Part shown: positions 9,538 through 59,845 of the stretch, one piece after another
How the letters are laid out: each line of letters begins with the position of its first letter
Numbering within the stretch: the stretch's first letter is position 1
Assembly (NCBI GenBank): GCA_963774265.1
Contig: CAVZDU010000003.1
Location: 352,001 to 416,000, forward strand
Source of the DNA: an uncultured Chloroflexia bacterium
GTDB taxonomy: Bacteria > Chloroflexota > Anaerolineae > CG2-30-64-16
Length of the DNA stretch: 64,000 bases
Reading direction: 5' to 3'
The notes under the pieces: generated by a model
Databases searched by the model: none
What the model saw: only the letters and a program-made list of their open reading frames with translations
What the model was told of the DNA's origin: nothing
Translations under genes and position numbers: made by a program

Positions 9538-9776
9538 GACAGCTTTCCTCACACAAAGAAGAGATGTGGCTCATTGTAGCGCATCCCTTGGCGGGCCGGA
9601 AGTGCGGGCATGTGGCTCTTCAAGCAGTATCGTCCGGCCGGATCGATGTGGCCAGTTGCCCCTTTTGGGCTTGTCTACCGGGTCCATACTATGGTATTAT
9701 TTATTTGTAAGTCAATTCCTGCTATCGATCGGTGGAAGAAGGTCAACGGCGGGCTGCATCAGCAAAGGATGGTCGA

Positions 9777-18700: not shown

Positions 18701-19024
18701 CTTCTTGCCCGTGAAGCCCAGCTTTTTCTCAACCTCAAGCTCGACAGGAAGGCCATGGGTGTCCCAGCCGCCCTTACGCGAGACGTAGTAGCCGCGCATG
18801 GTCCGGTAGCGCGGGAAGATATCCTTGAAGGCACGCGCAAGGACGTGGTGGATGCCTGGGCGGCCATTTGCCGTTGGCGGTCCCTCGTAAAATACATAGC
18901 GCGGCCCATCGCGAGTCTGTTCGATCGTTTGCTTGAAGACGTCTGCCTGCTTCCAGAATGTCAGCACACCTTGCTCCATTTCGGGCAGGTTCACCTGGGG
19001 AGAGACGTCCTTGAATCTGGGCAT
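15770..19024 (-). CDS. ileS: isoleucine--tRNA ligase (type II)
   Basis: GPPTANGRPGIHH, GWDTHGLPVE, WTTTPWTLP, GTGLVH, RERYWGTPLP, DQTRGWF, KMSKS. Confidence 0.97.
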   Translation of the reverse strand: MPRFKDVSPQVNLPEMEQGVLTFWKQADVFKQTIEQTRDGPRYVFYEGPPTANGRPGIHHVLARAFKDIFPRYRTMRGYYVSRKGGWDTHGLPVELEVEKKLGFTGKKSIEDYGVTEFNRLCRQSVFDYVDDWEKLTERMGYWVDLPTAYRTLTNDYVESLWWILKQYWDRGLIYQGYKVVPYCPRCGTPLSSHELALGYQEGTKDPSIFVKFPLKDQPGVYLLVWTTTPWTLPGNVAVAVGEKIDYVLVQHGDDKLWLAEALMGKVFEAHADHVQVLRKAKGKELLGLHYKPLYTFLPVTQDYCYVIPGDFVSTEDGTGLVHIAPAFGADDMEVGRKFGLPTLMTIDASGRFIDEVDPWRGVFVKEADTYIQRELTERGLMFKQGIYEHTYPFCWRCDTPLLYYARSTWYIKTTALKDQLVANNQLINWVPEHIRDGRFGEWLENNIDWGLARERYWGTPLPFWICDNPQCGHQECIGSVAELSLKTGRRFMSPRYLAQQLDRWPDPAQEDVEPLDLHRPAVDELTWKCEKCGEGTLRRVREVADAWFDSGSMPVAQWHYPFENREVFAEQFPADYICEAIDQTRGWFYTLHAVSTLLFGTPSFKNVICLGHIVAEDGSKMSKSRGNVINPWTVFDLHGADATRWYMYTASPAGNTRRFSANLVKEVVGRFILPLWNSYSFFVTYANLNNFDPATKPLPLAERSVLDRWVLAKLHDLVTTVTQALETYDVTGATRPIQDFVDELSTWYVRLSRRRFWNVEADARSQRLSLAAHQTMYEVLVTLSHLLAPSTPFLADEMYCNLVGGGMCLQERQAAISVHLSRWPEPNPLHEDGQLLADMALAQKVVGLGRAARESASLKLRQPLAEAFVGVPAKGDAEAVMRLADEVIKEELNVKALHTVAAGSELVDVQIHPLPKQLGQKHGRKFPAIKAALLELDPLTVAHALEGGQPVAVRVDGETIQVLPDEVQVRKQPKPGLAVAEDAGCLVAVTTELTDMLRWEGIAREVVRNIQELRKKSGFEISDRIHTTVQSGPALSPMWAEFGEEIARETLSARLTQGAPAAGAFTVSLKLDGEDVMIGVRKA

Positions 19025-19038
19025 AATTCCTCCAACCC

Positions 19039-20070
19039 TCAATTTGCACTCGCCAGCGTCACCATGACAGCCCGATGATCAGATCCCGTAGATGACCTGA
19101 GGGTCTGCGCTTCAACGGTGCGCCAGTGGCGCGAATGAAATATGTAGTCGATGCGAGTTTGGAACAGCAGACCAGCGACTCTGCCCATTCCCCACTCGTC
19201 CGCGGGCCAGGTGAATCCGTAGCCGCGGCCAACGCTCTTGAATGCGTCAACCATGCGCGTGCCCATGCACCGGTACGCGTCGCTGAACTCACCCATGTTA
19301 AAATCGCCGGCAACGATGACCGGGATACTGCCCGAGCCTTGCCCGGACGCCAGCCACTGGTCGATGTACCCGCAGATGGACTCGATCTGCGCCTCGCGCC
19401 CCCTGAAGCCCTCAGTGAGCTGCTCGACCGGCTCGTTATGCGAACGAGTTCCCCCGACGACAGATCTCAGATGGACGCCCACGAACCGCACGACCCCGTG
19501 TGGCGTCGTCACATCTGCCACCGCCGACCGGAGATTTAGTCCGGTTTCCAGGCTTCCCAGTTCTTGCATGGGCCAGCGGCTGTAGATGCTCACGCCGTCT
19601 TTCGCACGCGCCCCCTGCTCCAGGGTGCGATACGGGTAGGCGTCACCGATGGCCGCGGCCAGCGCGGCGTCCTGCCTGGTGGTGAGCTCGGCCAGCGCGA
19701 TGATGTCGGGCTGTTCGGCGGTGATGGCCGCGGCCATCGCACCGACGTCGCGGTTGCTGACCAGCACGTTCAGGGCCATCACCCGCACGGACGGTTGATC
19801 CGGCTCGACCTTGGCGCCTCTCGGAATGAACCGCCACCCGAAGAAGGCCAGCCACAGGACCGCGGGGATCAACGCAGTGACGATCGATACGGGCCGGCGG
19901 TCGATCGCGGCCAACAGCAGCGCGACCGGCGTCAACACGAACGGCGCGGTCGGCAAGCTGTTGAGCAGCGCGAGCACCAGCAGTTGGTCGCCCCACACGG
20001 CGCGGGCCAGCAACCAGACGACGATGGCGGCCGCGTAGAGAACCAGGAGCGCAGGGATCAATCGCTTCAC
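19039..20070 (-). CDS. membrane-anchored endonuclease/exonuclease/phosphatase family protein
   Basis: 3 N-terminal TMs, MALNV, PDIIALAE, VAGDFN, RIDYIF, SDHR. Confidence 0.9.
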   Translation of the reverse strand: MKRLIPALLVLYAAAIVVWLLARAVWGDQLLVLALLNSLPTAPFVLTPVALLLAAIDRRPVSIVTALIPAVLWLAFFGWRFIPRGAKVEPDQPSVRVMALNVLVSNRDVGAMAAAITAEQPDIIALAELTTRQDAALAAAIGDAYPYRTLEQGARAKDGVSIYSRWPMQELGSLETGLNLRSAVADVTTPHGVVRFVGVHLRSVVGGTRSHNEPVEQLTEGFRGREAQIESICGYIDQWLASGQGSGSIPVIVAGDFNMGEFSDAYRCMGTRMVDAFKSVGRGYGFTWPADEWGMGRVAGLLFQTRIDYIFHSRHWRTVEAQTLRSSTGSDHRAVMVTLASAN

Positions 20071-22426: not shown

Positions 22427-24703
22427 TCACTGCGCACTGAGGTCGAGCCGGCGCAGCAACTGTGCGTTCAGGGCGACCACGATCGTGCTGAGCGACATGA
22501 GCACCGCGCCCACGGCCGGCGACAGCACGATTCCCACCGGAGCGAGGACCCCGGCCGCGAGGGGCAGGGCGATCACATTGTATCCGGTGGCCCACAGAAG
22601 GTTTTGAACCATCTTGCGGTGGCTGGACCGGCTGAGGCCGATGACGCGCACGACATCAAGTGGATTGCTCTGGACCAGGATAATCCCCGCCGATTGCACG
22701 GCCACATCCGTGCCGCTGCCGATGGCGATGCCGACGTCCGCGCGGGTGAGTGCAGGCGCATCGTTGACGCCGTCACCGACCATCGCGACCCGCCGCCCCT
22801 GGCGCTGCAACTCGATGACCTTCTGGTCCTTGTGTTCTGGCAGCACCTCGGCAAAGTAGGTGTCGATGCCCAGATCCTCGGCCACACTGCGGGCAACAGC
22901 TTCAGCATCGCCCGTCAACATGGCCACCTGCACGCCCATGTCGTGCAGCTTGCGCACGGCTGCGCGACTTTCGTCGCGTATCACGTCAGCCAGCGCGAAC
23001 GCGGCGCGCACTTCGGCGCTGCCGTTGGCTTGCTCACCCACGAGGAAAACCGTGGTTTGGCCGCGCGCGTTGGCCATCTCCTCGAATTTGGCGAGCTCGG
23101 GAGGCAGATCCGCAGCCAGGGCTTCCAGCAGACGCGGACCGCCGATCTGCCAGGTCGAGCCGTCGACGATGGCGCGCGCCCCACGTCCTTTGATGGCTTC
23201 GAAGCCGCTCACCGCGGGAAGTGAAAGACCTCGCTCAGACGCGGCCGCGCGGATGCCGCGGGCGATCGTGTGCTCGGAGTCGCCTTCAATAGCGGCAGCC
23301 AGCGCCAATGCCTGGTCTGCGGTCCAGGCGTCGTGCGGTCGTGGCAGCAGCGCCGTTGACTGAGCCGCTTCGTGACTCTGCTCAGAATGCCCCGGCACCG
23401 CGACGCCGACCACGCCAAACTCGCCCTTGGTCAGCGTGCCCGTCTTGTCGAAGATCACGGTGTCGATCTCGCGCGCCCGCTCCAGCGCGAGCCGGTCGGC
23501 CACGAGGATGCCGTTACGCGCACCGAGCGCGGTGGTGATGGATACGACCAGCGGGATCGCTAGCCCCAGCGCATGTGGACATGCGATCACCAGAACGGTC
23601 GCCACGCGAGCAATGACATCCACGTCGAAGCCCTGCGCCACGGTCCAGGCGATAGCGGTAATCATGGCGACACCGATCGCCACGTAGAAGAGCCAGCCGG
23701 CTGCCTTGTCTGCCAGCACCTGCGTGTGCGATTTGCTCGTCTGCGCCTCTTGCACCAGCCGCATGATCCCGGCAAGCGCGGTTTTGTCGCCCGTGGCCGT
23801 CACGCGTACGCGCAGGCTGCCGTCGCCGTTAATAGCGCCTGCGATCACCCGGTCACCGACGGTCTTGCCAACAGGCCGAGACTCGCCGGTGAGCATGGCC
23901 TCGTTCACGTCCGACTCGCCCTCGACCACCTCGCCGTCAGCAGGGATGTTGGCGCCGGGTCGCACGAGCACAATGTCGCCGCCGAGCAGCTCCTCGGCGC
24001 GCACGATTTCCACTGCGCCATGCGGGTTCACCCGCTCCGCGGTGTCCGGCATGAGCCTGGCCAGTGCGTCGAGTGCACCTGACGCCTGGCGCACACTGCG
24101 CATCTCCACCCAGTGGCCCAGGAGCATGATGTCGATGAGGGTCACCAGCTCCCAGAAGAAAGATTCCCGGCCGGGCAGAAACAGGGTGGCCAGCGAGTAG
24201 ACGAACGCGACAGAAATGGCCAGCGAGATGAGCAGCATCATGCCGGGCTGGCGGTTGCGGACCTCAGGCCGGGCCATTTGCAGAAACGGCAGCCCCCCAT
24301 AGAGAAAGATCACCACCGACAGCACAGGCGTGAGCCATGGGCTGCCTGGGAATGCCGGCATGGTGAAGCCGAGCCAGTGCTGGATCATGGGGCTGTAGAG
24401 CAGAACCGGGACGCTCAGCGCCAGGGAGACCCAAAAGCGGCGCCGGAACATCGTTTCGTGGCCGCTGTGGTCGACATGTGTCCTGTGCGCACTGGCAGCC
24501 GTTGGCATCGCATGGTCCGCATGCGCATCGGGGGGAGAGGACACGCTGTGGACCGCGTGCCCGGCTGGGGCTGCCGGCACGGAGTGTGCGGCGGGTCCGG
24601 CCGCGTTCGATGCAATGTGGCTCGCGTGTTGATTCGTCGCCGGCGCGTTATGGCCGGCGTGTCCGGTCTCGGACATTCCTTCATGGCCTTCTTCTGTCAT
24701 CAA
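22427..24703 (-). CDS. copB: P1B-3 copper-translocating P-type ATPase
   Basis: His-rich N-terminus, [31 protein letters not shown] and MSLS motifs. Confidence 0.9.
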
Positions 24704-25821
24704 ATCCCTCCCACATCACCCCATATCCGGGCCATTTGGCCGCTCATGCGCTTCATTCGTTGGCGCGGGGCGATCAGAGGGCTGATTTCGCGCGTGCCAA
24801 GCCCGATCTTCACGAACAACCAGGGCCATATGAAAATGGCCCAGAACATCGCCAGGCCATAGCGCACGCTTCGCAGGGCCATCCCGAGCGCCGGTGGCTC
24901 CTGTGGGAAGATCAGGCGCAGGCCCATCCAGATCGCGGCCAGGCCAATCACGCCGATCACGTAGCGCAACGCGCGCTGCCACAACGGTCCGGTTACGGCG
25001 AAGCGCACGTAGCGGCTTTCCAACGCCAGGCCGATCCACAGCCCGAATCCCAAGCCTGCAATGATCGCGGCCTCGTCGAGCGTCGTGCGCCATGCCCCGG
25101 GGTAGAGGACGCGATACAACTGCCCCGTGCCGAAGGGGATTTCCAGCAGCAGCACCTCCAGCCCCAGGATGACCGCAGCGGCAACCAGCGCCAGCAGCAG
25201 ATGAAGTCCCAAGGAGAGCTTTTTGAGCCGCTGCACCAGAGACGGCTTGAACCTGGCATAGAGCGCGGCCAGAGCCAGGCCCACTGCTGCGCCCCACAGG
25301 ACGTCACCGGGGAAGTGCACGCCAAGGTAGACCCGCGAAAGCGCTACCAGGAGAATCAGCAAGCCCAGGACCACGATCCACAGCACCCCGCGCCGTCTGT
25401 TCGCCTGAAACCATGCCAGGTAGCCGAACAACGCCCCGCTGCTCTGCGCGTGGCCGCTCGGGGTCGAGAAGCTGCTGGCGTCGCTCAATTGCAGCCTGGC
25501 ATCTTCCCAAAACGGACGGTTGTGTTTGATAAACGACTTGAGCAGGCCATTGGTAAGACTCGACAGCATCAGCAGCACGGCAAAATCGACGCCCAGGCTC
25601 TTGTGGATGCACCAGTAAACCAGCGGGATTGCGATGAGATAGAACTGCTCGTCGCCCAGAAATGTGATGATCCGCATGGGCGCCGTGAGCCAGCCGCCAA
25701 GCGCCTGGAGGCCGATCACGCCGCTCAAGCTCCACAGCCATCCTGCAGCAAGGACCGTGGCGATCAGTGCCACTGGGAGCGCCGCCACGGCGCTGGATTT
25801 CAGGACCAACGTCTTCTTCAT
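24700..25821 (-). CDS. PAP2 family membrane phosphatase
   Basis: [26 protein letters not shown]. Confidence 0.92.
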
Positions 25822-29938: not shown

Positions 29939-30067
29939 AAAAACGAACCTCCTGCATATTTCAACCCTACTTGAGCTCCGGCGGTCGGCCTGCAAGCCCA
30001 GGTTAGGCACCGCCCTGGCCCCGCGCTCGGAACGAGACCTGCCGCCCATGATGGCGAACCGTGTGCC

Positions 30068-31435
30068 GTGGTCGCGCTCTTCCGGCGCTTGGCGCACCCA
30101 AACGGCTCGCGCTGCTGGTCGAAGGGGAGAGCCTCTTCAACGATGGCACGGCCATCGTGGTGTTCAACCTGGTGGTGGCCGCGGCCTCACCGGCGCCTTC
30201 CATCCGGTCGCTGGGATGCCTGGACTTCCTGCGCGTCGCGGCCGGCGGGCTGGCGGTCGGTTTCGTCCTGGGCTGGCTGATCGCGCAACTGATCGCCCGA
30301 ATCGATGACTACCTCATCGAGACCACCCTGACCACGGTGCTGCCTTCGGGGCGTACCTGATCGCCGAGCGCCTGCACTTCAGCGGCGTGCTGGCCGTGGT
30401 GGCGGCCGGACTGATCAACGGCAACATCGGTCCCCAGGGGATGAGCCCCACCACCCGCATCGTACTCTTCAACTTCTGGGAGTATGTGGCGTTCCTGGCG
30501 AACTCGTTGGTCTTTCTGCTGATCGGTCTGCAGGTGAATATCCCTTCGCTGGTCGCCAACTGGCAGCCGGTGCTTTGGGCAATCCTGGCGGTGCTCGTCG
30601 CACGCGCGATTGTCACTCTATGGGCTGGGCTGGCTGGGCAACCGGTGACGGAGCCGATCCCCTGGCGGTGGTTGCACGTTCTGAACTGGGGCGGGCTGCG
30701 CGGCGCCATCGCCCTCGCGCTGGCGTTGAGCCTGCCGGCGGCCCTGGGTCCGGATCGCGATCTCAGCTTCGCGTGCTGGCTTTGGGGTCGTGCTCTTCAC
30801 CCTGGTGGTTCAAAGCATGACCATGAAGCCGCTGCTGCGCTGGCTGCGGCATCGCAGTCCGTGATCCGATCCAGATCGAATACGAGACACGCCACGCGCG
30901 GATGCTGGCTTTCCGCGCAGCCGCGATGCACCTGGACCGCATGCAGCGCGAGGGATTCCTATCGGAGCATGCCTGGGAAGTGCTCCGGCCTGAGTTACTG
31001 GAGCGGGTGGACCGGCTGGCGTTGGATGTGCGGGCGCTGCAACGCGTACACCCGGAGCTCGCCGTCAAGGAGCTGGACACCGCGCGCCGCGAGCTGTTGC
31101 GTGCCCAGCGAAGCGCGTTGCGCGGCCTGCAGCGCGACGGGGCTATTTCCGAGGAGGTTTTCGAGGCCCTCGTCACCGAGATTGATGCCGGACTGGACGA
31201 TCAGGACACATCGGCGCCCGCGCGGCCCACAGAGCAGGAGCACACGACGATCTCGCCAGATAGAAACACCGCCACCAGGCGCCTGATCGACCCATCGAAT
31301 CGACGCCAGCACAGTAGGCTTCCCCACGGACTACGAAGCTTTAGCTGCAGTATAATACTTCACGAATTATACACGATCGAACAACAAATTTTAAGATTAA
31401 TGTTATCGGCCGCCGACATTTCGATACTCGCGTGA
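30068..31435 (+). pseudogene. CPA1 Na+/H+ antiporter, 5'-truncated and frameshifted
   Basis: Begins mid-protein at VVALFRR...LVEGESLFNDG; SGVLAVV, FWEYVAFLANS, WGGLRGAI in different frames; 3' end uncertain. Confidence 0.8.
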
Positions 31436-31493
31436 TGTGGTGGCTTTTTACTTTGGAGCACGGTCGTGGGGAACGTCAGATGAGGGCCAACCA

Positions 31494-32896
31494 ATGAACC
31501 AATACCTTCCGGGTCGGATCAGGCAAGCTGCGATGCTGGCACTCTCCGTTTCGATGCTCGTGGGTTGTACGGCGACCTTCGTTCCTTTGCAGCCCACTGA
31601 CTCTCCCATCCAGGCGACCCTCACCGCGCTGGTGCTCCCTGTGCAGGTGTCAAGGCCGAACACAGGGGAAACGAGCCTGAAGCAGGATGATACGGTGGTC
31701 GTGGGAATCGATGACCGGGTCGGGGTGCCGGAGAGTGGGCATGCGGTAGTGCAGGTCGGCGACCGTTTGGTGGTCGATGTTCTCGCGGGGCGGACTTCAG
31801 CATACCGGAGGTCAGACGTGAGCCAGGCGATGCCATCTTCGCGAGACTGAAGCAGATCAAAGGTCACTCCCACGTCGTGTTGAACGGAAATGCGAACGCG
31901 CGGGTGCGGCTGGAGACCGACTTTGCATCTATCACGACCCTGGAACCCGGGAACGGAATACCTGGTGTGCCACGATCCAACCCTGCTGACCTGCCTCGTC
32001 GTCTTAAAGGGGGAGGTGGAGGTCGTCGGACAGGGCAAGGTGGTCAGAGTCCAGGCTGGTGAGGGCACATATGTCCTTAAGGATAAACCTCCGTTTCCGC
32101 CGATTTGTGCGCATTTGGGGGACGTGAATGGATGGCTGGACAAACAACTGGGCACAGGATCGATCAAAGCCTTGGGTGAGCTTGTCGCAGGATGGAAGCA
32201 GGAATCCTGTGCTGCCGCAACTGCAGCGGCGCCGGTTGCGGTGTACACCAGCCAGCCTCAGGCCCTTCCTTTGTCCGAGGGCATGATCAAGGTTGAAGCT
32301 GGCGCCTATACGGTCGGCAGCACGCATCGGACGAGTTTCATATTCCTCCAATACAGAAGAAGCTGCCGACCTTCTGGATCGACATTCACGAAGTGACAAA
32401 TGCGCAATATGAAGCGTTCTCAACCAGACCGGCCATCCGAAACCCGCTTCTTGGCCGGCAGGATAATCACCCGGTCAAGGGTGTCACCTGGGACGATGCG
32501 GTTGCCTATTGCGCTTGGGCCAACAAGCGCTTGCCGTCTGAGGCCGAATGGGAAGTGGCCGCCCGGGGACCCAGCGCGGATCCGCCGTTGTATCCCTGGG
32601 GTAGCGATCCGGAGGACGGTGGGAAGGTTGACTATCTCCCCCGCACCGAAACCTATGAAGTCGGCAGCGTTGCCTTTAACATGAGCCCCTTCGGTGTCTA
32701 TGACATGGCCGGCAATGTCTGGGAGTGGGTGGGTGACCCATACTACCCCGTATCGGAAGGCATGAAGATCGTGCGAGGCGGCCGCTACGGGCGGATCAGG
32801 GATATGGCTTACCGCCAGCAAGCAGAACCCAAGAGCGGACGTTTCGTCCCCTATGCCGGTTTTCGCTGTGCGGCCGATCAGGTGGAAGGAGAGTGA
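31494..32896 (+). CDS. lipoprotein with FecR-like beta domain and C-terminal FGE-sulfatase (SUMF1) domain (frameshifted)
   Basis: Lipobox LVGC; EVTNAQY, HPVKGVTW, RLPSEAEWE, YPWG, DMAGNVWEW, RGG, GFRC across ORFs 31437, 31890 and 32393. Confidence 0.75.
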
Positions 32897-32899
32897 GGG

Positions 32900-34585
32900 A
32901 TGAAAAGGTCTTTTCGACTCTGGAGAGAGCATGGGTGCTGTTTCTCGTCTTAGCAGTCAGCAGTTGCACCGGTATGCAGTTCAACCGGCGCCAACCGGGG
33001 CTAAAGCTGTTGTAAGTCCTGCGCCGACAGGCAGATCCGGTCCGGCAGCTTCGGCGACAGCCCCGGCTGCAGCATCGGGTCCGAGGGCTTCCGCAACGCC
33101 GGCTTCGGCGCCGGCATGGGCGCTACTCCTGCCGCGATGGGTGAATCCGCATCCGCCGTGGCAGCCGCGCCTGTCAAGCAGGCAGTCGCCCAGAAGGGCG
33201 TGCTGTATCAGGATGATTTCACGGATCCGAAGAGTGGTTGGCCGAACAGTCTGGAGTATGGCAACTACTACATTGGCTATCATGAGCCGAATCACTACCA
33301 CGTGGAAGTCCATGTGCCGAACGATCGGGCGGTGGTGCCGTGCCGAAGCAGACCTTCGGCGACTTCACGATGGAGACGAAGGTCTGGGCCGATCCGAACA
33401 ACACAGCCAAGACCGGCGATTTCCGTTACGGTCTGGTCTTCCGGCGGTCGGGCAACCAGTACTATGCGTTCGTGGTCTCGCCGCGCACCAAGACCTGGTA
33501 TGTGCTGAAGAGTTCTCCGGGCGGTCTGGTGGACTCTGAAGAAAGGCAGCAATGATTCGATCCAGGGTCTGACGGCCGACGACACCTTGCGCGTGGATGC
33601 CAAGGGGTCGACCTTCTTCTTCCACATCAACGATCAGGAGCGTCGGCCAGGTCAGCGATGCCGACTACGCCAGCGGCGAGGCGGGCTTCCTGGTCGAGAC
33701 GCAGGACAGCCCCCGCGCCCACATCCATTACGGCACAACCACGATCCGCGAGGTCGAGACTGCTCAGCCTTCAGCGAGCATCCTGTATCGGGATGATTTC
33801 ACGGATCCTGAAGAGTGGTTGGCCGAACAGTGTGGAGTATGACAACTACTACATTGGCTATCATGAGCCGAACCACTACCACGTGGAAGTCCATGTGCCG
33901 AACGACCGGGCGGTGGTGCCGTGCCGAAGCAGACCTTCGCCGACTTCACGATGGAGACGAAGGTCAGGACCGATCCGAACAACACAGCCAAGACCGGCGA
34001 TTTCCGTTACGGTCTGGTCTTTCGTCGTTCGGGCAACCAGTACTATGCGTTCGTGGTCTCGCCGCGCACCAAGAGCTGGTATGTGCTGAAGAGTTCTCCG
34101 AGCGGTCTGGTGACCCTGAAGCAAGGCACGCAATGATTCGATCCAGGGTCTGACGGCTGACGACACCTTGCGCGTGGATGCCAAGGGGTCGACCTTCTTC
34201 TTCCACATCAACGATCAGGAGCGTCGGCCAGGTCAGCGATGCCGACTACGCCAGCGGCGAGGCAGGGTTCCTGGTCGAGACGCAGGACAGCCCGCGCGCC
34301 CACATCCATTACGGCACAACCACGATCCGCGAGGTCGAAACCCCACAGCTTGTGTGCACGGTAACCGCGTACGCGCTCAATGTTCGGAGCGGGCCAGGCA
34401 TGACGTACCCTTCGCTGGTCGTCATGCGAAGCGGCGCTCAATTCGAGCCGCTTGCCCGCGACGCTGTTGGATCATGGATCAATGTGCGTGTCATAAGTGG
34501 CGATATGAAGGGTTGGATTTCAAGCGCGCCAGCGTTCGTGACCTGTAACATGGCGGTTAACGACCTGGCGGTGCGCCAACCATGA
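32900..34585 (+). CDS. lipoprotein with two tandem DUF1080/LamG-like beta-sandwich domains and C-terminal SH3 (frameshifted)
   Basis: MKRSFRLW...VLFLVLAVSSC, Pro/Ala linker, 2x LYxDDFTDP.SGW...FxDFTME...YGLVFR...FHIN...SGEAG, ALNVRSGPG...GWIS. Confidence 0.7.
33203..34338 (+). repeat. intragenic direct tandem duplication, ~580-bp period
   Basis: 33203-33757 and 33783-34338 are near-identical by eye. Confidence 0.95.
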
Positions 34586-36631
34586 CTGAGTTCGCCGACC
34601 TGGAGATTGGGCTGCACCGTCGAGATGCCAGCGTCTACGTCATCGAGTTTCGTTTCAGCCAGCCCAACAGCGAAGCCGATGTGCGTCTTGATCAGGGCCA
34701 ATCGGCTCAGGCGGCTTTTGACCTCGGCTGAACTCATCAGCCTGGTCTACGACCCTGCGGCTTACGGACAAAACCTGACACAGTCCTTCTTCGCGGAGCC
34801 CGCCGTCCAGACCGCGTTCGTGCAGGCGCGTGCCAGCGCCCAATCGCTTGGCGCGCCTCTGCGCGTCCGGCTGCTGATCGGCGCCAGTGCCGGCGAGCTG
34901 CAGGCTCTGCATTGGGAGTTGCTGGCTGATCCGCAAGGGAACAGCCCGCTCTCTACCAGCGAGAACCTGCTTTTTTCTCGCTATCTGAGCAGCCTGGATT
35001 GGCGCCCCGTTCGACTGCGCGCCAAAGGTGAGCTGCGGGCTCTCGTCGTGGTTGCGAACCCATCCAACCTCTCCGACTATGGCCTGACGCCGATCGACGT
35101 GGCCGGGGAGCTGGTCCGGGCACGCGATGGGCTCGGCGAGATTCCCATCACCCCCTTGCCCGACTCGGATGGCGTCCGGCGGGCCACTTTGAACAATCTG
35201 GTCGCGCTGCTGCGCGAGACCGAGTACGATATTCTCTACCTGGTGTGCCACGGCGCCCTGGTCAAGTCGGAACCCTGGCTTTGGCTGGAAGACGATCAGG
35301 GTAAAGTGGCGCGCGCTTCGGGCGTCGAATTGGTTACTCGTCTTGGCGAATTGACGACGCGTCCTCGCTTGCTCGTGCTGGCCTCTTGCGAGAGCGCGGG
35401 CGACGGCTCCGGAGATGCGCTTGCTGCCCTCGGACCTCGATTCGCCGAGGCCGGCATCCCGGCGGTGCTGGCGATGCAGGGCAAGATCAGCGTGCAGACG
35501 TTGTCGCAGTTCATGCCGGTGTTTTTCCATGAGCTGCAACGTGACGGTCAGATCGACCGGGCAGTGGCGGTGGCGCGGGGCGCGGTTCGCCAGCGGCCCG
35601 ATCATTGGATGCCGGCTTTGTTCATGCGCCTCAAAAGCGGGCGCATCTGGTATGTTCCCGGTTTCGCCGACGAGCAGGAAGACTTTGAAAAATGGTCCAG
35701 CCTGTCCGGTTTCGTCCACGACCGGACCTGTACGCCGATCCTGGGACCCGGGCTAATCGACAGTATCATCGGCTCCCGGCGCGACATCGCGGTTCGCTGG
35801 GCCGAGCGACACGGCTTCCCCCTGGCCAGCCAGGACAGGGACAATCTCCAGCAGGTGGCCCAGTATCTTCTGACCCGTCAATCGCCGGCCTATGTGCCGG
35901 TTATCTATCGAGAGGCACTGCGCGAGGCAGTGCTGTGCCGCTTTAGCGCCGCACTACCCGCAGAGCTGCAGCAGGTCGCCACCTGGTCAACTCCTCAGTT
36001 GCAGCAGGCGCTCGGGTTGGTGTCTGACCGTTATTCGATGGACAACCCATCCGAGCCTTATGACTTGCTGGCGCGGTTGCGCTTGCCGATTTACGTCACC
36101 ACCTCGACACTCGATTTCATGACCCAGGCCCTGGTCGGGGCCGGCGCTGAGCCGGTCGTGCGGATCTGCCCATGGAACAAGTGGATCCCAAAGGAAAAGG
36201 CCATCTACGAAGACGAACCCACTCCGGAAAGGCCGCTGGTATATCATCTGTTCGGCCACTTGAGCGTGCCGAGCTCGCTCGTGCTCGCCGAGGACACGTT
36301 CTTCGATTATCTGATCGGAGTGACACAGAACAAGAGCCTGATCCCCAGCGCAGTGCGGGCAGCCCTAAGCAACACCTCCCTCTTGTTTCTCGGCTTCCAG
36401 ATGGACGACTGGGAGTTCCGGGTCTTTTTCCGTTTTCTCATAGGGCAGGAAGGGAAGGAAATGCTCAAGCTGTACAGCCATGCTGCGGCGCAGATCGAGC
36501 CGGAAGAGACCCGCATCCTGGATCTCAAGCGCGCCCGCAAGTACCTGGAAGAGTACTTCGAAAGCGAGCACATCGCTATCTACTGGGGCAGCACCGAGGA
36601 ATTCCTGAAAGCGCTATGGCAACATCTGTAG
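34582..36631 (+). CDS. CHAT (caspase-like) protease fused to a SIR2-like (SIR2_2) domain
   Basis: Start MTEFADLEIG at 34582 (frameshift near 34720); LHWELL, YLVCHG, VLASCES, PAVLAMQ; then PILGPG, YVTTS, VYHLFG, SLLFLGFQMDDWEFR. Confidence 0.85.
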
Positions 36632-39600
36632 GTGAGCCCAATCCATATATCGGCCCGCGCGCCTTCCAATTGGGCGAGCGCATCTATGGCCGGGAGCACG
36701 AAGCCAGCCAGTTGGTCAACCTGATCATCGCTGAACGGGTCGTGCTGCTTCATTCCCCTTCCGGCGCGGGCAAGACCTCCCTGATCCAGGCCGCCCTGAT
36801 CCCAAGATTGCTGAAGAGCAGGTTCCAGGTGTTGCCTGTGGTGCGCGTCAATCTGGCTTCGCCGATTCGAAGGACCGGGACCCTGAATCCAACCGCTATG
36901 TCTACAGCGCTCTGCTGTCTCTGGAAGAAGGGCTGTCCCCCGGCCAGCAAGTTGGGTCAGCCGATCTGGCCCGGATGAGTCTCTCGGACTATCTGGCACA
37001 GCGGCCAGGCCGGAAGGCGCACTCGACATCCAGGTGCTCATCTTCGACCAGTTCGAGGAAATCCTCACCCTGGATCCCACGGACCTGGCTGCCAAGCAGG
37101 AGTTTTTCAGGCAGCTGGGCGATGCGCTGGCCGCGCCCAAGCGCTGGGCGCTGTTTTCCATGCGCGAGGATCATGTTGCGGCCCTCGATCCGTACAAGCT
37201 GCCTATCCCGAGCCTCTTGGCGAACACATTCCGACTCGACCTGCTGGGCCTGGAGGCGGCTCGCCAGGCGATCCAGCGACCGGCCCTGCAAGCCGGGGTC
37301 GAGTTCGAGGACGCGGCGGTTGAAAAACTGGTGGATGATCTGCGCCGGGTGCGCGTGCAGCAGCCGGATGGTTCGGTGGCGCCACAGCTGGGCCCACACG
37401 TCGAGCCGGTGCAGCTCCAAGTGGTTTGCCATCGACTGTGGGAAACCCCGCGTCCCGCCATGGGACGGATCACCGAGCAGGACCTCGCGGCGTTCGGGCA
37501 GGTGGACCAATCGTTGGTCGACCAGTCCCTGGCAGAGTACTATGCCGAGCGGGTGGCGGCTGTCGCGGCCGAAACCGGGACAAGCGAGCGCAGCATCCGG
37601 GAATGGTTCAATCGCCGGCTGATCACCGAGCAGGGCGTGCGCGGCACGGTGCTGATGGGAAAGGAACGAAGCGGCAGCTTGGACAACCGTGCTATCCGGT
37701 CCTGGTCGATGCCTATCTGGTGCGAGGCGAGAAACGCGGCGGGGCCACCTGGTTCGAGCTGTCCCACGATCGACTGATCGGACCGGTTCGCGGTGGATAA
37801 TGCTGCATGGTTCAAGGCCAACCTGAGCCTGGTCCAGCAGCGCGCCGACGTGTGGGAACAACAGGACCGGCCAGAGAGCCTGCTGCTGCGCGGGCAGGAG
37901 CTAGCGCAGGCCAGGTTGTGGGCGGAGGACCATCAGGCGGAGTTGCTGCCCTCCGAGGTGGATTACCTGGCCGGCAGCCAGGAGCAGGCTATCCGTGCCT
38001 TACGCCTGAGGCGACGCAACCAGGTCATTTTGGTGCTGGGAATAGCGTCGATGCTGCTTGCCTTCGTGGCTTCGCTAGCCTTCAGGACGGCAGCCCGTGA
38101 GCGGGACTTGGCCCGACGCCAGGAACGGCTGGCGCGTGCGGGCCAGTTGGCGGCGCAGTCGCAGGCCGCCCTGCAAGCGTTTCCGCCTCGCAGCATGTTA
38201 TTGGCCGTCGAGGCCCTGAGCGTTACGCTCAAGGCCGGTGAGCCGCGCCTGGCGAATGCCGAAAATGCTCTGCGCGGTGCTCTCAGCGATCCCCATGGGA
38301 TACCCTTGCCCGGTCACACGGGTGAAATCAAGGCCCTGGCCTTCAGCCCGGAGTGCGGCGGCTCACTCAGTGCGCCCGGCGGAGCTGTCCCTGGGACAGC
38401 GGCGCGGTGTGGACACTGGTTGGCCACCGGCAGCGATGACAATACCGTCCGGTTGTGGTCCATCGACGCCACGGATGGGGCCGCGAGTCCACTCATCCTG
38501 TCAGGCCACGAGAACCGCGTCACCGCCCTGGCCTTCAGCCCGGAGGGCCGTTGGCTGGCCTCAGGGAGCGCGGATCAGACCCTCCGGCTCTGGGACCTGC
38601 CGCGCCGCGGATCCCGCTGCGAATCCCCTGGTTCTGAACAGCCAGGGTGGTGACGTGTATGCATTGGCCTTCAGCCCGGAGGGCCGTTGGTTGGCCGCCG
38701 GCGGCCTCGACGGAAGGGTGCAGTTGTGGGACATGGCCGCGCCTGTAGCGGGAGCCACGCCGGTCATCCTATCCGGCCACCAGGGCTCGATCCTCATACT
38801 CGCCTTCAGCCCTGGCGGTCACTGGCTGGCAGCAGGCAGCGATGACAGGACCGTCCGGCTCTGGGACATGACCGCCGGGAATGTCGATGCGTCCCTGAGA
38901 GTTCTGCGCGGGCATGAGGGCGTGATCACCAGCCTGGCCTTCAGCGCAGACGGACGGTGGCTGGCCACCGGCAGTCGAGACAAGACGGCCAGGCTGTGGG
39001 ACCTGGCCGCGGCCGATCCGGAGGCTCAGCCGCGCGTTTTGCGCGGGCACAGCGATTGGGTCAACGCCCTCGCATTCAGCCCGGAGTGCGACCGCCTGCG
39101 CGAAGGGTCAGCGGATTCGTGTGTGCAATGGCTCGCGACCGGGAGCGGCGACAAAACCGTCATGCTGTGGGACCTGAGTGCTCCGGAGGCGGTCGCCTCT
39201 CCACGGGTTCTCACGGGTCACGAGGGGGCTATCAACACCCTCGCCTTCAGCCCCGAGGGTCGTTGGTTGGCGACCGGCAGTACGGACAAGACTGCTCGAC
39301 TGTGGGACCTGCGTGCGGGAGACCCCGGCCCGGCCCCAGTTGTTTTGCGCGGACATGAAGATTGGGTCAATACCCTCGCCTTCAGTCCGTGGTGCTACAA
39401 CCCGCCTGGGGCCTCCGGCGAAGCAGTCCTGGGGACAGGGGACGGGTGCCCGCGTCTGTTGGCCACCGGCAGCAAGGACATGACCACGCGGTTGTGGGTC
39501 GTGGGCGCCGTCGACCCGACCGCGGATCCCATCGTTTTGAACAGTCACAAGGACCAGGTCAACACCCTGGCATTTGACCCGGACGGACGTTGGCTGGCGA

Positions 39601-40874
39601 CCGGTGGGGGCGATCCGGCCGGATCGCCGGGCGGCGACAATACCGACAATGCCGTTCGGCTGTGGGATGTGGGAGCCGCTGGCCCGGCCGCGGCTCCCAT
39701 CCTCCTGAGCGGCCATGATAAGTGGATCAGCACGCTCGCCTTTAGCCCGAGGTGCGGCGCCCCATTCGGAGGGTCAGCGGCGCGGTGTGTGCAATGGCTT
39801 GCAACCGGCAGCGGAGACAGTACCGTCAGGTTGTGGGACCTAAGCGCCGGGGATGGTGTCGCCTCGCCCCGCGTCCTGACCGGCCATGCAGGGCCTATCA
39901 CTGCTCTCGCCTTCAGCCCACAGTGCGCCAACTCAACCGGAGCGACAAGCGTGCCAGCCCAGGGGTCAGCGGAGCAGTGCGCCCGCTGGCTGGCGACCGG
40001 CAGCCAGGACAAGACCGCGCGGCTCTGGAACCTGTCAGCCGCGGGCCCGGTCGGAGACGCACGCGTCTTGGCTGGCCACGAATCGATCGTCAGGGCGTTG
40101 GCGATCAGCCCGGATGGACGCTGGCTGGCCACCAACAGCGACTACACCACTTATTTGTGGGACCTCACCGCGCTGGGCGCGGATCCAATCAGGCCGGCGC
40201 ACACCCTGCACGAACACAGCGATTTCGTCACCAGTCTCGCCTTCAGTCCCGACAGCCGCTGGCTGGCCACCGGAGGTGGGAGCAGCGACAAGACGATCCG
40301 GGTATGGGACATGCGCGCTGCCAACCCCGCGGCCAATCCCAAAATCCTAACCGGTCCCCAGGCTGAGGTTAGCGTGCTGGCCTTCAGCCCGGGGTGCCCT
40401 GGCTCATCCCAAGCGCCGGCGGGGGGGTGCGGGCGCTGGCTGGCCGCTGGCAGCAAGGATAAGATAGTCCTGGTGTGGCCTGTTGGCGAGGACGGTCCGG
40501 GCGGGGAGCCGCTCGTCCTGCGCGGCCACTCGGGGTCGATCACCGCCCTGGCCTTTAGCACAGACGGCAATTGGCTTGCCACCGGCAGCGATGATGAGAC
40601 GGCCAGGCTGTGGGATCTGCATTCCCCGAACACTTCGGCCCAGTCTGCCGTGTTAGGGGGCCACGCGGCAGGGGTCCTCACCCTGGCTTTTGACCCGGAG
40701 GGCCGCTGGCTGGCCACAGGCAGCCAGGACCACACCGTTCGATTGTGGTCCTTGTCCCTGGACAACCTGATCAGCCTGGCCTGTTCTGGTGCGGGGCGGA
40801 ATCTCACCCAGGAGGAATGGGTGGAGTTCTTCCCCGGCGAGACCTACCGCAAGACCTGCACCCAGTGGCCCTGA
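36616..40874 (+). CDS. nSTAND1-type NTPase, TM helix, 16 WD40 repeats (several frameshifts)
   Basis: NPYIGPRAF, YGRE, SPSGAGKTSL, IFDQFEE, MRED, LQVVC, ELSHDRL, LLLRG, TM VILVLGIASMLLAFVASLAF, GH...AFSP...WLATGS...LWD repeats, ACSGAGRNLTQEEW...TC tail. Confidence 0.85.
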
Positions 40875-40900
40875 CTTTGCCCGGCACCCGCCATCGGCCG

Positions 40901-42334
40901 TCAGGCGCGGTTCTCCACGTTCTGCCCTGTCGATAGGCGCACGGCCGGATCACCGATAATGGCGTAGCCGCGCGCATCATTGTTGGCCATCCACATGTGG
41001 GCCAACTCGTAGGGGTCGACCTTCAACCCCGCTTCGATCTCTTCCAGCTCATCGGTCAGCACCGTCGACAGCTCGGCCCAGCGTTGATTGAAGTATTCGA
41101 GCGCTGAGCCGATGGGGTGGCCGTCGAGCAGGCGCTGGAGCGTACTCTCGAAGACGGTTGTCTGCGCTCCCGCATCCGGCCAATCGAAGGAAAAGGACCA
41201 GGCGCGTTCGATGTGGCCGACCACTGCGAGCGCGCCGCCGCGGGGGTGGGATAGCATTTTCTTCGGCAGCTCCGCGGTAAAGGAGAATGGCGCGATGGGC
41301 CTCGGCTGCGCGAAGGCCTGTTTCGAATACTCGTCCACCCTGGGCGTGCCCGCCCCATAACATGCGAAGAAGAAGGCCACCATGCCCAGAAGGTTGGCGC
41401 TTTCAGCCAGGTCTTCGCCGGCAAAATAGTGGTCGCGTGAGATCGGCCGCCTGCCCCAGGCCTCTGGCCCAGGCCAATCCTGGCAAAGCAGAGCGCCCTG
41501 GTGCTGCATCTGACGCGGGTCGTCGAACGGAAACTCCATCCCGTGGCTCCCGGTCATGAGCAGGGCGGGCGCTTCGGGTCCCCCCAGAAGTGCCTGTAGT
41601 CGCGCCTTGGTCGCGCCATCCCGCAGGACCGACCGGATGTCCCAACCGGAACTCTTCGCACTGAAGGCCTTGTAGAGAGGTTCGATGAGGTTGCCGGTGG
41701 AGAGCGTCGTTGCACGGTCGCCGGGGTTGGCGACTCCGAAAAATGTGGCGGTGCGGGGCGGCGTGGTGTCAAGTTTTTCCGCGGCGACCACGCTGCCCGC
41801 ATAGCTGGCATACTCCTGTAATGTGTCAAAATCGAGACGGCCGACGGCATGTTGGACATCCAGCTCGTATTGAAACCGATAGGGGATCTCTTCAGGATGA
41901 CCGACAATCAAGAGGTAATAGGGAACCTTGTCAGGGTCGACCGGTCCCGGGCCAGCCCCGTAACGGCCGAGAAACCTCGATTTGGTGTCCGCGCCGCGGC
42001 GATAACCCTCCGCGCCGCTGAAGAGGCGAAAGTGGGGGCCGGCTTGCGTTTTGCGGAGCGCGAGGAGGTCTGTCAACGCCTCCTCGATGGCCGGGTCGGC
42101 GTCATCCGCGAAGATGATCCCCCAACCGGCCTCATCCAGCTTCTTGGGGTCGATCCCTTCCTTGAGGCCACGGTTCTCTTCGCTTTCGGTCAAGTGATAG
42201 CGAAGCTCCTTTGAATTCTCAGGTGTCCCAAGGCGCAGGATGACCGCCGCAAGTTCTTCGCCCGTCATGGGCGGTATTCCGTAGTCGCCGGTGGCGCCAT
42301 TGACGCCATTGAAGACGAGCTGCTTCTCGGACAT
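40901..42334 (-). CDS. peptidase C25 / caspase-hemoglobinase fold protein
   Basis: PYYLLIVG, AVGRL, LMTGSHG (His), FFFACYG (Cys), GGALAVVGH, IIGDPA. Confidence 0.78.
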   Translation of the reverse strand: MSEKQLVFNGVNGATGDYGIPPMTGEELAAVILRLGTPENSKELRYHLTESEENRGLKEGIDPKKLDEAGWGIIFADDADPAIEEALTDLLALRKTQAGPHFRLFSGAEGYRRGADTKSRFLGRYGAGPGPVDPDKVPYYLLIVGHPEEIPYRFQYELDVQHAVGRLDFDTLQEYASYAGSVVAAEKLDTTPPRTATFFGVANPGDRATTLSTGNLIEPLYKAFSAKSSGWDIRSVLRDGATKARLQALLGGPEAPALLMTGSHGMEFPFDDPRQMQHQGALLCQDWPGPEAWGRRPISRDHYFAGEDLAESANLLGMVAFFFACYGAGTPRVDEYSKQAFAQPRPIAPFSFTAELPKKMLSHPRGGALAVVGHIERAWSFSFDWPDAGAQTTVFESTLQRLLDGHPIGSALEYFNQRWAELSTVLTDELEEIEAGLKVDPYELAHMWMANNDARGYAIIGDPAVRLSTGQNVENRA

Positions 42335-42499: not shown

Positions 42500-42546
42500 G
42501 CCGCGTAGGTAGGGGCAGCCGCAGGTGCTGCCCCTACCTACGCGGC
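42500..42546. repeat. perfect 20-bp inverted repeat (GTAG REP-like or terminator) overlapping the metY stop
   Basis: gccgcgtaggtaggggcagc-cgcaggt-gctgcccctacctacgcggc. Confidence 0.8.
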
Positions 42547-43834
42547 GCTGGCCTCCAGCGCCTGATCCAGGTCCCACAGGATGTCGTCGATATCCTCGAG
42601 GCCGACGCTCAGGCGGATGAAGTCGGGCGTGACGCCGGCCGTCGCCAGCTCGTCCTCGCTGAGCTGGCTGTGCGTGGTGCGTGGCCGGATGGATGGCCAG
42701 GCTCTTGGCGTCGCCGACGTTGGCCAGGTGGCTGAAGAGCTTGCAGGCTCTCGATGAACCTGCTGGCCGGCCGCCACGCCGCCCTTGATGCCGAAGCCCA
42801 GGATCGCGCCCGGCGCCCTTGGGCAGATACTTCTTGGCCCGCTCGTGATCGGGATGGCTGGCCAGGCCCGGGATAGCTGACCCAGCTCACCCGCGGATGC
42901 GCCGTCCAGGAACTCGGCCACCGCCTGGGCGTTGGCCACGTGGCGATCCATGCGCAGGCTGAGGGTCTCGATGCCCTGGATGGTCTGCCAGCTATTGAAC
43001 GGCGCCTGGCAGGCGCCGATGTCGCGCAGGATCTGCACGCGCGCCTTGAGGATGAACGCCGGCGCGCCCAGGTCGGCGTAGACCAGCCCGTGGTACGATG
43101 GGTCGGGCGTGGTGAAGTTGGCGAAGCGGCCGCTGGTCCAGTCGAAGTTGCCGCCGTCGACGATCACGCCGCCGATGGTGGTGCCGTGGCCGCCGAGGAA
43201 CTTGGTGGTGCTGTGGACGACGATGTTGGCGCCCCACTCGAACGGCCGGCACAGGTAGGGCGTGGCGAAGGTGTTGTCGATCATGAGCGGGATGCGCGTG
43301 CTGCCTGGCCAGCGCCGCCACCTCCTCGAACGGGAAGACGCTGATGTCGGGATTGCCCAGCGTCTCGCCGTAGAGGATCTTGGTGTTGGGCCGGATCGCC
43401 TTCTCGAAGTCGCCCGGGTCGGTCGGATCGACGAAGGTCACGTCGATGCCGATGCGCGGGAAGGTGTAGGCGAACTGGTTGTAGGTGCCGCCGTAGAGCC
43501 GGCTGCTGGTGACGATGTGGTCGCCCGCGCCGCACAGGGTGAGGATCGCCATGGGCCTGCGCGGCGTGGCCGCTGACTGGCCGCCAGCGCGCCGACGCCG
43601 CCTTCCAGGTCTGGCCAGGCGCTGCTCGAGCACGTCGGTGGTCGGGTTCATGATGCGGGTGTAGATGTTGCCGAACTCCTTCAGGGCGAACAGATTGGCG
43701 GCGTGCTCGGTGTCGCGGAACTGGTAGCTGGTGGTCTGGTAGATCGGCACGGCGCGGCTGCCGGTGGTCGGGTCGGGCTGCTGGCCGGCGTGCAGTTGGC
43801 GGGTGGTGAAGCCGAGCTTGCGTTCGGTGATCAT
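42538..43834 (-). CDS. metY: O-acetylhomoserine aminocarboxypropyltransferase (multiple frameshifts)
   Basis: RAVPIYQTTSY, GNIYTRIMNPT, LYGGT, IDNTFATPYL, HSTTKFLGGHG, IRLSVGLE. Confidence 0.92.
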
Positions 43835-43897
43835 GGCTTGTTCCTCTCTTCATTCGGATGCGGCCTCCGCCGGCCGGGACTGTTGTTCACGCATCGC

Positions 43898-46092: not shown

Positions 46093-46124
46093 TTGACACG
46101 GGGCGGGCGCGGCCGTGATATAAT
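46093..46124 (+). promoter_or_regulatory. extended -10 promoter, probably leaderless
   Basis: TGaTATAAT ends at 46124, 6 nt before ATG 46131; TTGACA at 46093 has a 20-bp spacer. Confidence 0.65.
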
Positions 46125-46130
46125 GCGTTT

Positions 46131-46448
46131 ATGAATGATGAGGTTGCGTTTCATGTTCGGTCTGCGTTGCGCGAGGCTCACCCGACCTGGTCCATCCGCG
46201 CGGATCCGCCTGCGCTGACGCCTGAACGAATCGCCGCGGATGTGGCCGCGGCCTTCGCCGATCTGGATTGGCGACAGATCGAGCTCTCGCGCCAGTTCAC
46301 TCCCGCACAGAGGCTGCGACAGGTGGCCTCATTAAATGACTTCCTGCGCCACGCGGTGCTGGCCGCGATCCGGAGGGAAGAGCCGGACATCAGCACGGAG
46401 GCGCTGCAGCGCAGATATCTGGAGCGCATTGGGATACTGATCCCATGA
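46131..46448 (+). CDS. small helical protein, putative antitoxin partner of the nucleotidyltransferase
   Basis: FTPAQRL...AIRREEPDIS; ATGA overlap with the next gene. Confidence 0.65.
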   Translation: MNDEVAFHVRSALREAHPTWSIRADPPALTPERIAADVAAAFADLDWRQIELSRQFTPAQRLRQVASLNDFLRHAVLAAIRREEPDISTEALQRRYLERIGILIP

Positions 46449-57415: not shown

Positions 57416-57432
57416 GGCGACCTCGCGGTCTG

Positions 57433-59772: not shown

Positions 59773-59845
59773 GGCATTGCTTCCGATCGTGGACGCGGTC
59801 CGATGGAGCGATCATAGCACAAGCCACGACAAAAAGCAACTATAT

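Follow-up and report, generated by a model that had tools for sequence, protein, structure and literature searches.

The 64,000-nucleotide stretch of DNA analysed here (below, the window) comes from an uncultured Chloroflexia bacterium (assembly GCA_963774265.1, contig CAVZDU010000003.1, positions 352,001 to 416,000) and carries at 31494-42334 a locus of five genes, named G1 to G5 in the list below. The conserved unit in it turned out to be smaller than five genes: the core consists of two, one encoding a CHAT protease joined to a SIR2-like domain (CHAT-SIR2) and the other an nSTAND1 ATPase followed by a transmembrane (TM) helix and WD40 repeats (nSTAND1-TM-WD40). On comparison of sequences, the locus appears to be an NLR-like conflict system, acting in cell death or immunity, built on this two-gene core with a membrane-spanning STAND protein; we put the probability of this reading at roughly 0.55. 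It looks like an undescribed variant of the bacterial STAND cell-death/immunity systems. From the same material we infer its topology, the binding of its parts, the order of their activation, and an immune role rather than another one.

31494-32896, plus strand: G1, lipoprotein with a weak cupin-like barrel and a C-terminal FGE-sulfatase domain (Pfam, frame reading)
32900-34585, plus strand: G2, lipoprotein with jelly-roll repeats and an SH3_3 domain (Pfam, three-frame reading)
34582-36631, plus strand: G3, CHAT protease with a degenerate SIR2-like domain (Pfam, motif alignment)
36616-40874, plus strand: G4, nSTAND1-TM-WD40 protein (Pfam, helix, NOD motifs)
40901-42334, minus strand: G5, gingipain-like (C25, clan CD) cysteine peptidase (Pfam, AlphaFold2 model, fold search)

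The four plus-strand genes are packed over 31494-40874, and G5 is convergent on G4. The stop codon of G1 (32894-32896) is followed after a gap of 3 base pairs (bp) by the ATG of G2 at 32900, the ATG of G3 at 34582 overlaps the TGA of G2 (34583-34585) in an ATGA, the ATG of G4 at 36616 lies within G3 (end 36631) with an overlap of 16 bp, and the ends of G4 (40874) and G5 (40901) are 26 bp apart. A preliminary description of this DNA, made from its letters, had placed the five genes just so, with all four spacings exact, and its domain calls are borne out by Pfam (FGE-sulfatase, SH3_3, CHAT, SIR2_2, nSTAND1, WD40, and Peptidase_C25). It had recognised no named system in the layout, and PADLOC likewise assigns none to the locus, returning only weak domain-level matches (SAVED_CHAT with an expectation value (E) of 7.4e-6, ThsA with E 2.7e-5, and HEAT-ARM_XIII on the WD40 part) and no Avs match. 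A search of the locus proteins against NCBIfam gave nothing useful beyond that.

Related loci were collected, with their flanks, from a species-genome scan (3 loci, Anaerolineales), from a phylum sample with matches in 27 of 401 genomes, and from a class sample in which 48 of 401 genomes match at E ≤ 1e-30 and 21 contain a full-length homolog. The set comprises 38 loci including the window, 25 from the window's class and 13 of a family designated f21, and the core-pair loci are drawn from two classes of Chloroflexota. Adjacency can be judged in the 36 loci with enough flank. The CHAT-SIR2 and nSTAND1 genes are neighbours in 35 of them, the nSTAND1 gene being directly downstream in 34 and directly upstream in one (L048). 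A STAND protein and a separately encoded CHAT protein, as the preliminary description had proposed, do form a conserved and tightly packed pair. The co-occurrence it expected among all five genes holds for this pair and, in part, for the C25-like gene (10 of 38 loci), but not for the lipoproteins (2 of 38). In four loci (L053, L055, L061, L066), one CHAT-SIR2 gene is flanked by two or three STAND paralogs. The CHAT-SIR2 family numbers 2709 proteins at E ≤ 1e-10 among 8000 scored; the best 120 of these all combine CHAT with SIR2_2 and are named hypothetical or "CHAT domain-containing". The spread is patchy: the single same-genus genome examined has no match, and among 14 genomes of the same family there is one, covering the SIR2-like half alone. 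In 8 of the 13 f21 loci (L037, L038, and L041-L046) the STAND gene is followed directly, on its own strand, by a gene for a giant secreted FG-GAP repeat protein, another extracytoplasmic neighbour of the core; this protein is 1400-1800 amino acids (aa) long, has a signal anchor, and in some cases carries a proprotein-convertase P-domain.

The ATPase module (NOD) of G4 is read in two frame pieces that match nSTAND1 with E 1e-10 and 2.3e-16 (42.2 and 60.8 bits, cut-off 27.1); intact orthologs reach 119-123 bits. Walker A (GAGKTS) and Walker B (FDQFEE) are both present, and an alignment of 37 NODs shows no departure from SGAGK[ST]S and hhhhDQFEE. No effector domain precedes the module, since Walker A starts about 45-50 residues in and position 1 of the nSTAND1 profile falls on residue 10. 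A single TM helix at about 38024-38083 is followed by about 15 WD40 repeats. The preliminary description was right about the nSTAND1-TM-WD40 layout but not about the number of repeats, which it gave as 16; we find 2 + 13 WD40 stretches. The position of the WD40 part beyond a single hydrophobic helix is confirmed as a conserved property: one strong hydrophobic segment lies about 400-480 residues past Walker A in 37 of 37 STAND proteins of the locus set, and the helix is likewise found in 118 of the 120 proteins that a database search with the NOD ranked highest. That search gave at least 3120 matches at E ≤ 1e-10.

The WD40 sensor of G4 is probably outside the cell. The NOD side of the helix is rich in Arg and Lys, and since the ATPase has to lie in the cytoplasm, the propellers are expected on the other side of the membrane. 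After the helix, G4 has 14 Cys residues that make seven close pairs, mostly in loops inserted in the WD40 blades, and the NOD has a single Cys in the 348 residues read; the number of Cys after the helix is even in 29 of 37 homologs. In one locus (L078) CHAT, nSTAND1, TM helix, propeller, and FGE follow each other on one chain. Judged by sequence identity, the sensor is diverging much faster than the ATPase. STAND paralogs of the same locus share 57-69% identity in the NOD and only 26-36% in the sensor, and the values for close orthologs are 84-96% vs. 68-92%. The window contains a second membrane-associated STAND gene (56132-59811, minus strand) with inverted order: an N-terminal signal-like segment, a Reg_prop beta-propeller, a hydrophobic helix at residue 475, and an AAA/nSTAND1 ATPase. 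As the gene runs over two overlapping frames, it is probably frameshifted.

G3 matches CHAT with E 3.3e-29 (102.7 bits) and SIR2_2 with E 3.2e-17, both within 34607-36628. The catalytic dyad of the CHAT domain, His at 35249-35251 (VCHG) and Cys at 35387-35389 (ASCES), was described earlier as intact, and both residues are indeed invariant in 15 of 15 aligned homologs. The other half of the protein tells a different story from the one first proposed, in which SIR2 domains were immune effectors. The SIR2-like profile matches ThsA (7uxt, E 1.5e-14; 6lhx, E 7e-12), spans the GxG, TTN, and hhKLHG regions, and points to a fold homologous to that of Thoeris ThsA and other SIR2 NADases (7uxt, 6lhx, 8bto, KomC 8zsf, DSR2 8k98). 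Unlike in ThsA and the DSR enzymes, 35 of 38 aligned sequences have Phe where the catalytic His (KLHG) would stand, and of the 38 only two, the stand-alone SIR2-like proteins, retain the His; the column of the catalytic Asn (TTN) is Asn in 24 of the 38 and Ser in the window. A pattern search gave the same picture: in the 114 of 150 database representatives in which the motif was found, the His position is Phe, Leu, or Tyr and in none of them His. Because the catalytic His, and in the window also the Asn, is lost, the domain is unlikely to be a NADase of the known kind or an effector that depletes NAD, and an adaptor is the more likely role.

We infer that the SIR2-like domain serves the STAND protein as a docking or oligomerisation module. 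Searched alone, this half of the protein matches 1868 representative clusters at E ≤ 1e-30, and 110 of the best 150 representatives are 641-780 aa long, the size of CHAT-SIR2. Where CHAT is split off (L071, L075), the STAND gene is still directly preceded by the SIR2-like gene. In L081 a SIR2_2-nSTAND1-HEAT protein has the SIR2-like part in front of the NOD, and in one database representative the SIR2-like module is N-terminal on a 1116-aa protein. The L081 fusion (L081:5052-8207) also lacks the canonical SIR2 Asn and His, stands directly after an FGE/SH3 lipoprotein pair, and ends in four or five Gly-rich hydrophobic helices.

The following mechanism is proposed. A single crossing of the membrane by G4 would leave its NOD in the cytoplasm and its fast-diverging double WD40 propeller outside, and G3 would be a cytoplasmic CHAT (caspase-fold) protease with a catalytically degenerate SIR2-like domain. 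Binding of a ligand to the outer propeller would free the NOD to oligomerise with ATP. The SIR2-like domain would then dock G3 onto the NOD; one relative fuses such a domain directly before an nSTAND1 NOD. The CHAT domains clustered in this way would turn active and cleave their targets, probably including G5 as a second tier, like SAVED-CHAT with PCaspase. That STAND assembly might switch on the protease in the manner of an apoptosome was already suggested in the preliminary description. The lipoproteins G1 and G2, which are attached in one small lineage, may or may not feed the sensor.

The candidate second tier, G5, has an intact frame and matches Peptidase_C25 at 40901-42334 on the minus strand with E 1.7e-5 (24.7 bits, cut-off 23). 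Its dyad is His264 (41543-41545) and Cys325 (41360-41362); in 25 C25-like sequences H264/G265 is invariant and C325 is kept in at least 90%. The AlphaFold2 model of G5, with a predicted local distance difference test score (pLDDT) of 88 and a predicted template modelling score (pTM) of 0.91, was compared with the Protein Data Bank (PDB) using Foldseek. The best folds are gingipains K and R (6i9a, E 2.2e-9; 1cvr, E 1.9e-8), after which separase and CHAT proteases are listed. G5 resembles the gingipains Kgp and RgpB of Porphyromonas gingivalis (6i9a, 4rbm, 1cvr) over its whole length (TM-score 0.43-0.50, probability 1.00) and has their His-Gly and Ala-Cys catalytic motifs. It differs from them in sequence (13% identity) and in its genomic partners, which are CHAT and STAND genes. 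No N-terminal hydrophobic signal and no additional Pfam domain were found in the 477-aa protein. Since, unlike true gingipains, it has no signal peptide, propeptide, or secretion domain, it is presumably cytoplasmic.

The C25-like gene is present in 10 of the 38 fetched loci, all among the 25 of the window's class and none among the 13 of f21. It is mostly co-directional and placed after the STAND gene, and coordinates reveal five further core/C25 pairs on the same contig within 13 kilobases (kb). Among class genomes, it accompanies a full-length CHAT-SIR2 in 21 of 21 vs. 44 of 401 overall, a figure inflated by kinship. Twelve C25 loci from other places were inspected as well: six lie beside CHAT or STAND genes and four beside a protein of 254-279 aa. 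The second His-Cys peptidase converging at 26 bp, pointed out in the preliminary description, is therefore a partner that recurs with such systems.

The 254-279-aa protein follows the C25-like gene in many loci (L003:3576-4403, L036:1558-2319, L063, L065, L073, L075, L076, L077) and occurs also in the window's own genome (L080, about 7227-8400, G000:C7). Three h-S-F/Y-G motifs are conserved in it, and its C-terminus forms a pair of hydrophobic helices rich in Gly and Ala. At E ≤ 0.001 it matches no Pfam family, and IL32, which one member hits at a relaxed threshold of E 0.1 (E 0.015, 16.1 bits, cut-off 27), was dismissed as a chance-level match. Its AlphaFold2 model (pLDDT 81) finds no PDB fold better than E 0.2 and no usable match in the Atlas. 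The protein could be a substrate or membrane effector of the C25-like protease.

A fuller version of the proposed mechanism can be drawn as an "outside-in apoptosome", and we offer it tentatively, as an extension that is less probable than the two-gene reading from which it starts. A surface WD40 receptor would detect an external agent, for example phage adsorption or foreign cells, and the signal would cross the single helix to the cytosolic STAND ATPase. CHAT would be engaged via the SIR2-like adaptor, and a gingipain-like executioner would complete a two-tier cascade. The FGE-lectin and SH3 lipoproteins would have been borrowed as co-receptors in one lineage.

Kaur et al. defined the nSTAND1 clade and reported that multicellular bacteria have STAND systems whose domains include caspase, NAD-related, and FGS types (Kaur, Iyer, Burroughs, Aravind, eLife 2021, PMC8195603; eLife 2020, PMC7159879). 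As far as the available parts of the two papers go, the lectin sensors of these nSTAND1 systems are intracellular, and their effectors are either fused or recruited via effector-associated domains. The present locus shares with them the NTPase clade, effector domains of the caspase superfamily and of NAD-related families, FGS/FGE lectin folds, and repeat sensors, together with a patchy distribution in filamentous bacteria and a free shuffling of modules. In contrast to the systems in those parts, its effector is a separate gene with no effector-associated domain, and its STAND protein is predicted to cross the membrane, with the WD40 repeats beyond the helix. It also differs from the two-gene EACC1 membrane system, as outlined in the part of the 2020 paper at hand (PMC7159879), in which a small EACC1 gene stands 5' of a caspase-X gene: upstream of G3 there is no small TM gene of this type and no Pfam match to one. 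Neither a pair of CHAT-SIR2 and membrane-spanning nSTAND1-WD40 nor a gingipain-like partner was found described in the portions of the literature that were covered, supplements excepted.

Bacterial Apaf-1-like WD40 STAND proteins have been reported (bioRxiv 2026, PMC12803255); in the sections available they are cytosolic, and each chain itself bears either a CARD or an N-terminal caspase-like domain. Like these and the Apaf-1 apoptosome, the present system would combine a NOD and WD40 propellers with a caspase-fold protease and presumably be activated by oligomerisation. Unlike them, as characterised in those sections, G4 has no N-terminal domain and has a TM helix before the propellers, and the protease is encoded separately. 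Steens et al. found that oligomerised SAVED-CHAT cleaves and activates a second caspase-like protease, PCaspase (bioRxiv 10.1101/2023.06.23.546230). That system, a type III-B CRISPR-CBASS hybrid, resembles ours in having a CHAT protease plus a second caspase-like protease. According to the accessible part of the report, the trigger there is cyclic triadenylate (cA3) on the SAVED domain, whereas here it is predicted to be a STAND ATPase; unlike PCaspase, the second protease here has a gingipain (C25) fold, and its cleavage by CHAT is suggested by analogy. An Avs-type STAND protein has an effector domain fused at the N-terminus, which G4 lacks. A membrane Ser/Thr kinase with an extracellular beta-propeller sensor, as in PknD, offers a parallel for the topology. 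In such kinases with an outer propeller or FGE domain, as proposed for G4, one helix links an enzyme module in the cytoplasm to a ligand-binding module outside, but in G4 the cytoplasmic module is a STAND oligomerisation switch and not a kinase.

To our knowledge, the STAND/NLR receptors of animals, plants, and bacteria are regarded as cytosolic sensors, and the predicted outside-facing NLR-like sensor is for us the most interesting point of the locus. If a STAND family of at least 3120 proteins does span the membrane with its sensor outside, NLR-type switching would reach cell-surface surveillance, and bacteria would possess a counterpart to a surface receptor combined with an apoptosome. The SIR2-like partner family with its 1868 representative clusters is large and unnamed, and may be a case in which an enzyme domain has become an adaptor. 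As for the gingipain-like partner, its recurrence hints at a second natural cascade of two proteases in bacteria. The caveat applies that the window copy may be unreadable as assembled.

Several observations weigh against a conflict system of this kind. The surroundings of the locus are housekeeping genes with no recognisable defence island. In L054 another gene follows CHAT-SIR2 within the available 1.4 kb. G4 has no N-terminal adaptor domain, and a common effector-associated domain was not seen. The Cys density in the homologs is equal across the helix (0.52 before vs. 0.50 after per 100 residues), so that the disulfide argument for an outer sensor rests on pairing and not on enrichment. The co-occurrence counts overstate their significance because genomes of shared descent are not independent, and in f21 the C25-like gene is unlinked, being 45-190 kb off in complete contigs (5 of 5 f21 genomes tested). 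Finally, the window's own copy has about 18 frameshifts in about 7 kb (window 31400-38650), far denser than in neighbouring long open reading frames that are intact, such as isoleucyl-tRNA synthetase (1102 aa, 15773-19078) and a P-type ATPase (762 aa, 22430-24715), and for this reason it could be dead.

The position among housekeeping genes would also suit a core pair that serves filamentous Chloroflexi not in immunity but in signalling across the membrane or in quality control. The propeller would read an outside cue, such as the state of the cell wall, a neighbouring cell, or a nutrient polymer, and the answer would be regulated proteolysis, as with the CHAT proteases of cell division and differentiation or the membrane anti-sigma factors. 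A very weak NCBIfam match to the cell-division protein HetF (E 0.0046, far below cut-off) is in line with this, as is the presence of the transmembrane CHAT-type anti-sigma factor DdvA (8rot, E 3.7e-5) in the fold search with G5. The variable neighbours of the core are extracytoplasmic, whether the FG-GAP giants of 8 of the 13 f21 loci or the FGE/SH3 lipoproteins elsewhere, and Ser/Thr kinases occur that carry FGE and jelly-roll modules. We nevertheless consider such a role unlikely in view of the patchy spread even within the genus and the family, of the multiple diverged sensor paralogs in several loci and the fast divergence of the sensor, and of the ease with which CHAT, SIR2, nSTAND1, FGE, and C25 recombine in different fusions. 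Patchiness, diverged paralogs, and domain shuffling are hallmarks of conflict systems in the portions of Kaur et al. available (2020, PMC7159879; 2021, PMC8195603), and a conflict system remains the reading we prefer.

The frameshifts require separate consideration. At least 18, located by reading the frames against intact orthologs, are spread over the 10.8-kb locus in four of its five genes: three in G1 (near 31790, 31949, and 32330), at least nine in G2, one in G3 (near 34725), five in G4 (near 36870, 37008, 37690, 37790, and 38590), and none in G5. Because of the shift near 34725, G3 is not fully intact. They could be real, which would make G1-G4 pseudogenes and the locus a decayed remnant in this genome, whatever the family does elsewhere. 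The density points in this direction, several flanking genes of 2-3 kb being intact, and so do the in-frame stops in two homologs elsewhere (TAG in G263, TGA in G618). We regard decay as improbable: only indels occur, with no in-frame nonsense codon met on read-through, and amino acid identity to intact orthologs holds at 41-69% across every frame switch. Three of the shifts in G2 recur at identical places in both of its repeats. Genes outside the locus are affected too, as rpoB, a gyrA paralog, the NhaP antiporter just upstream, and the Cys/Met-metabolism pyridoxal phosphate (PLP) enzyme just downstream are all split between frames, which makes an assembly error probable. An unpolished long-read assembly would also be expected to look like this genome, which reaches 84% completeness with only 10 contigs. 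From these sequence features, it is quite likely that the frameshifts are consensus errors of such an assembly.

Strain heterogeneity, sequence context, and real decay are candidate causes of the local density. As to a possible effect of methylation motifs, many of the sites lie near CCWGG or GATC; together these are found everywhere at about 13 per kb and show no enrichment in the shifted stretch. The NhaP-type Na+/H+ exchanger (window 30052-31435) is in three frame pieces, and the two pieces of the PLP enzyme (window 42538-43849) match consecutive halves of the Pfam model. At 6188-9570 on the minus strand, four coding-like frames of about 310 aa with overlaps of about 100-130 bp look like one gene of about 3.4 kb with three frameshifts.

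The lipoproteins G1 and G2 are probably a separate extracytoplasmic two-gene module. Both lipoprotein signals noted earlier are there, the lipobox LVGC in G1 and AVSSC in G2. The FGE-sulfatase domain of G1, which has a C-type-lectin fold, matches with E 3e-39 (window 32297-32893), and an intact ortholog (L081:1764-3188) has both lipobox and FGE domain. The label "FecR-like" first given to G1 was dropped: Pfam gives no FecR match, only Cupin_2 below its threshold of 27.2 bits (17.1 bits in the window, 26.7 in L002). G2 is built of the lipobox, a Pro/Ala-rich linker, two near-identical jelly-roll repeats like PF06439/DUF1080, and a C-terminal SH3_3 domain (E 6.9e-7, window 34154-34582); precomputed matches to PF08239 and, in some cases, PF06439 are recorded for its homologs. 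Fusions of FGE with jelly-roll and SH3 domains, and with Ser/Thr kinases, exist. The possibility that the FGE gene is diversified by a diversity-generating retroelement was rejected for this genome, as blastn of 32300-32960 against it gave only short matches of up to 46 bases and no template repeat, and reverse transcriptase (RVT_1) has 0 matches in the 84%-complete assembly.

It could be argued that all five genes form one obligate system in which the FGE and SH3 lipoproteins act as co-receptors that present a ligand to the WD40 propeller. The tight packing in the window (3-bp gap, ATGA overlap) invites this idea. The order FGE-SH3-CHAT is repeated in L082, and FGE-SH3 is followed by SIR2-nSTAND1 in L081; L078 joins propeller and FGE beyond the helix of one STAND chain. 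The pair adjoins the core in L002 as well, although in the other orientation, on the opposite strand. Five equal longest-contig sizes hinted that CHAT-SIR2 and SH3-lipoprotein homologs share contigs, but the one case tested proved false; P0144 and P0134, considered as sharing the contigs of L051 and L064, matched neither locus. The survey of neighbourhoods makes an obligate five-gene system doubtful. In 80 metagenome loci fetched with the SH3 lipoprotein as query, the FGE gene is immediately upstream of the SH3 gene in 48 of the 48 with enough flank and in 71 of all 80, whereas a CHAT gene follows the pair in one (L082) and a NOD in one (L081). The other neighbours are ordinary, unrelated housekeeping genes, and only 2 of the 38 core loci contain the pair. 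As it is mostly found with no STAND gene nearby, the co-receptor role assigned to it in the preliminary description can be at best a lineage-specific add-on. By the gene orders seen, it is one small lineage (the window, L002, L082, and L081) that has placed the lipoprotein pair beside STAND systems. STAND systems also contain FGE in other arrangements: L075 has it joined to CHAT, L078 at the end of the STAND protein, and L071 as a protein of its own. This makes a functional tie possible without requiring it; the FGE domains of L071 and L075 have no signal peptide.

Elsewhere in the window, a small reading frame at 46119-46445 on the plus strand shows a weak match to an Rv0078B-related antitoxin (E 8e-7).

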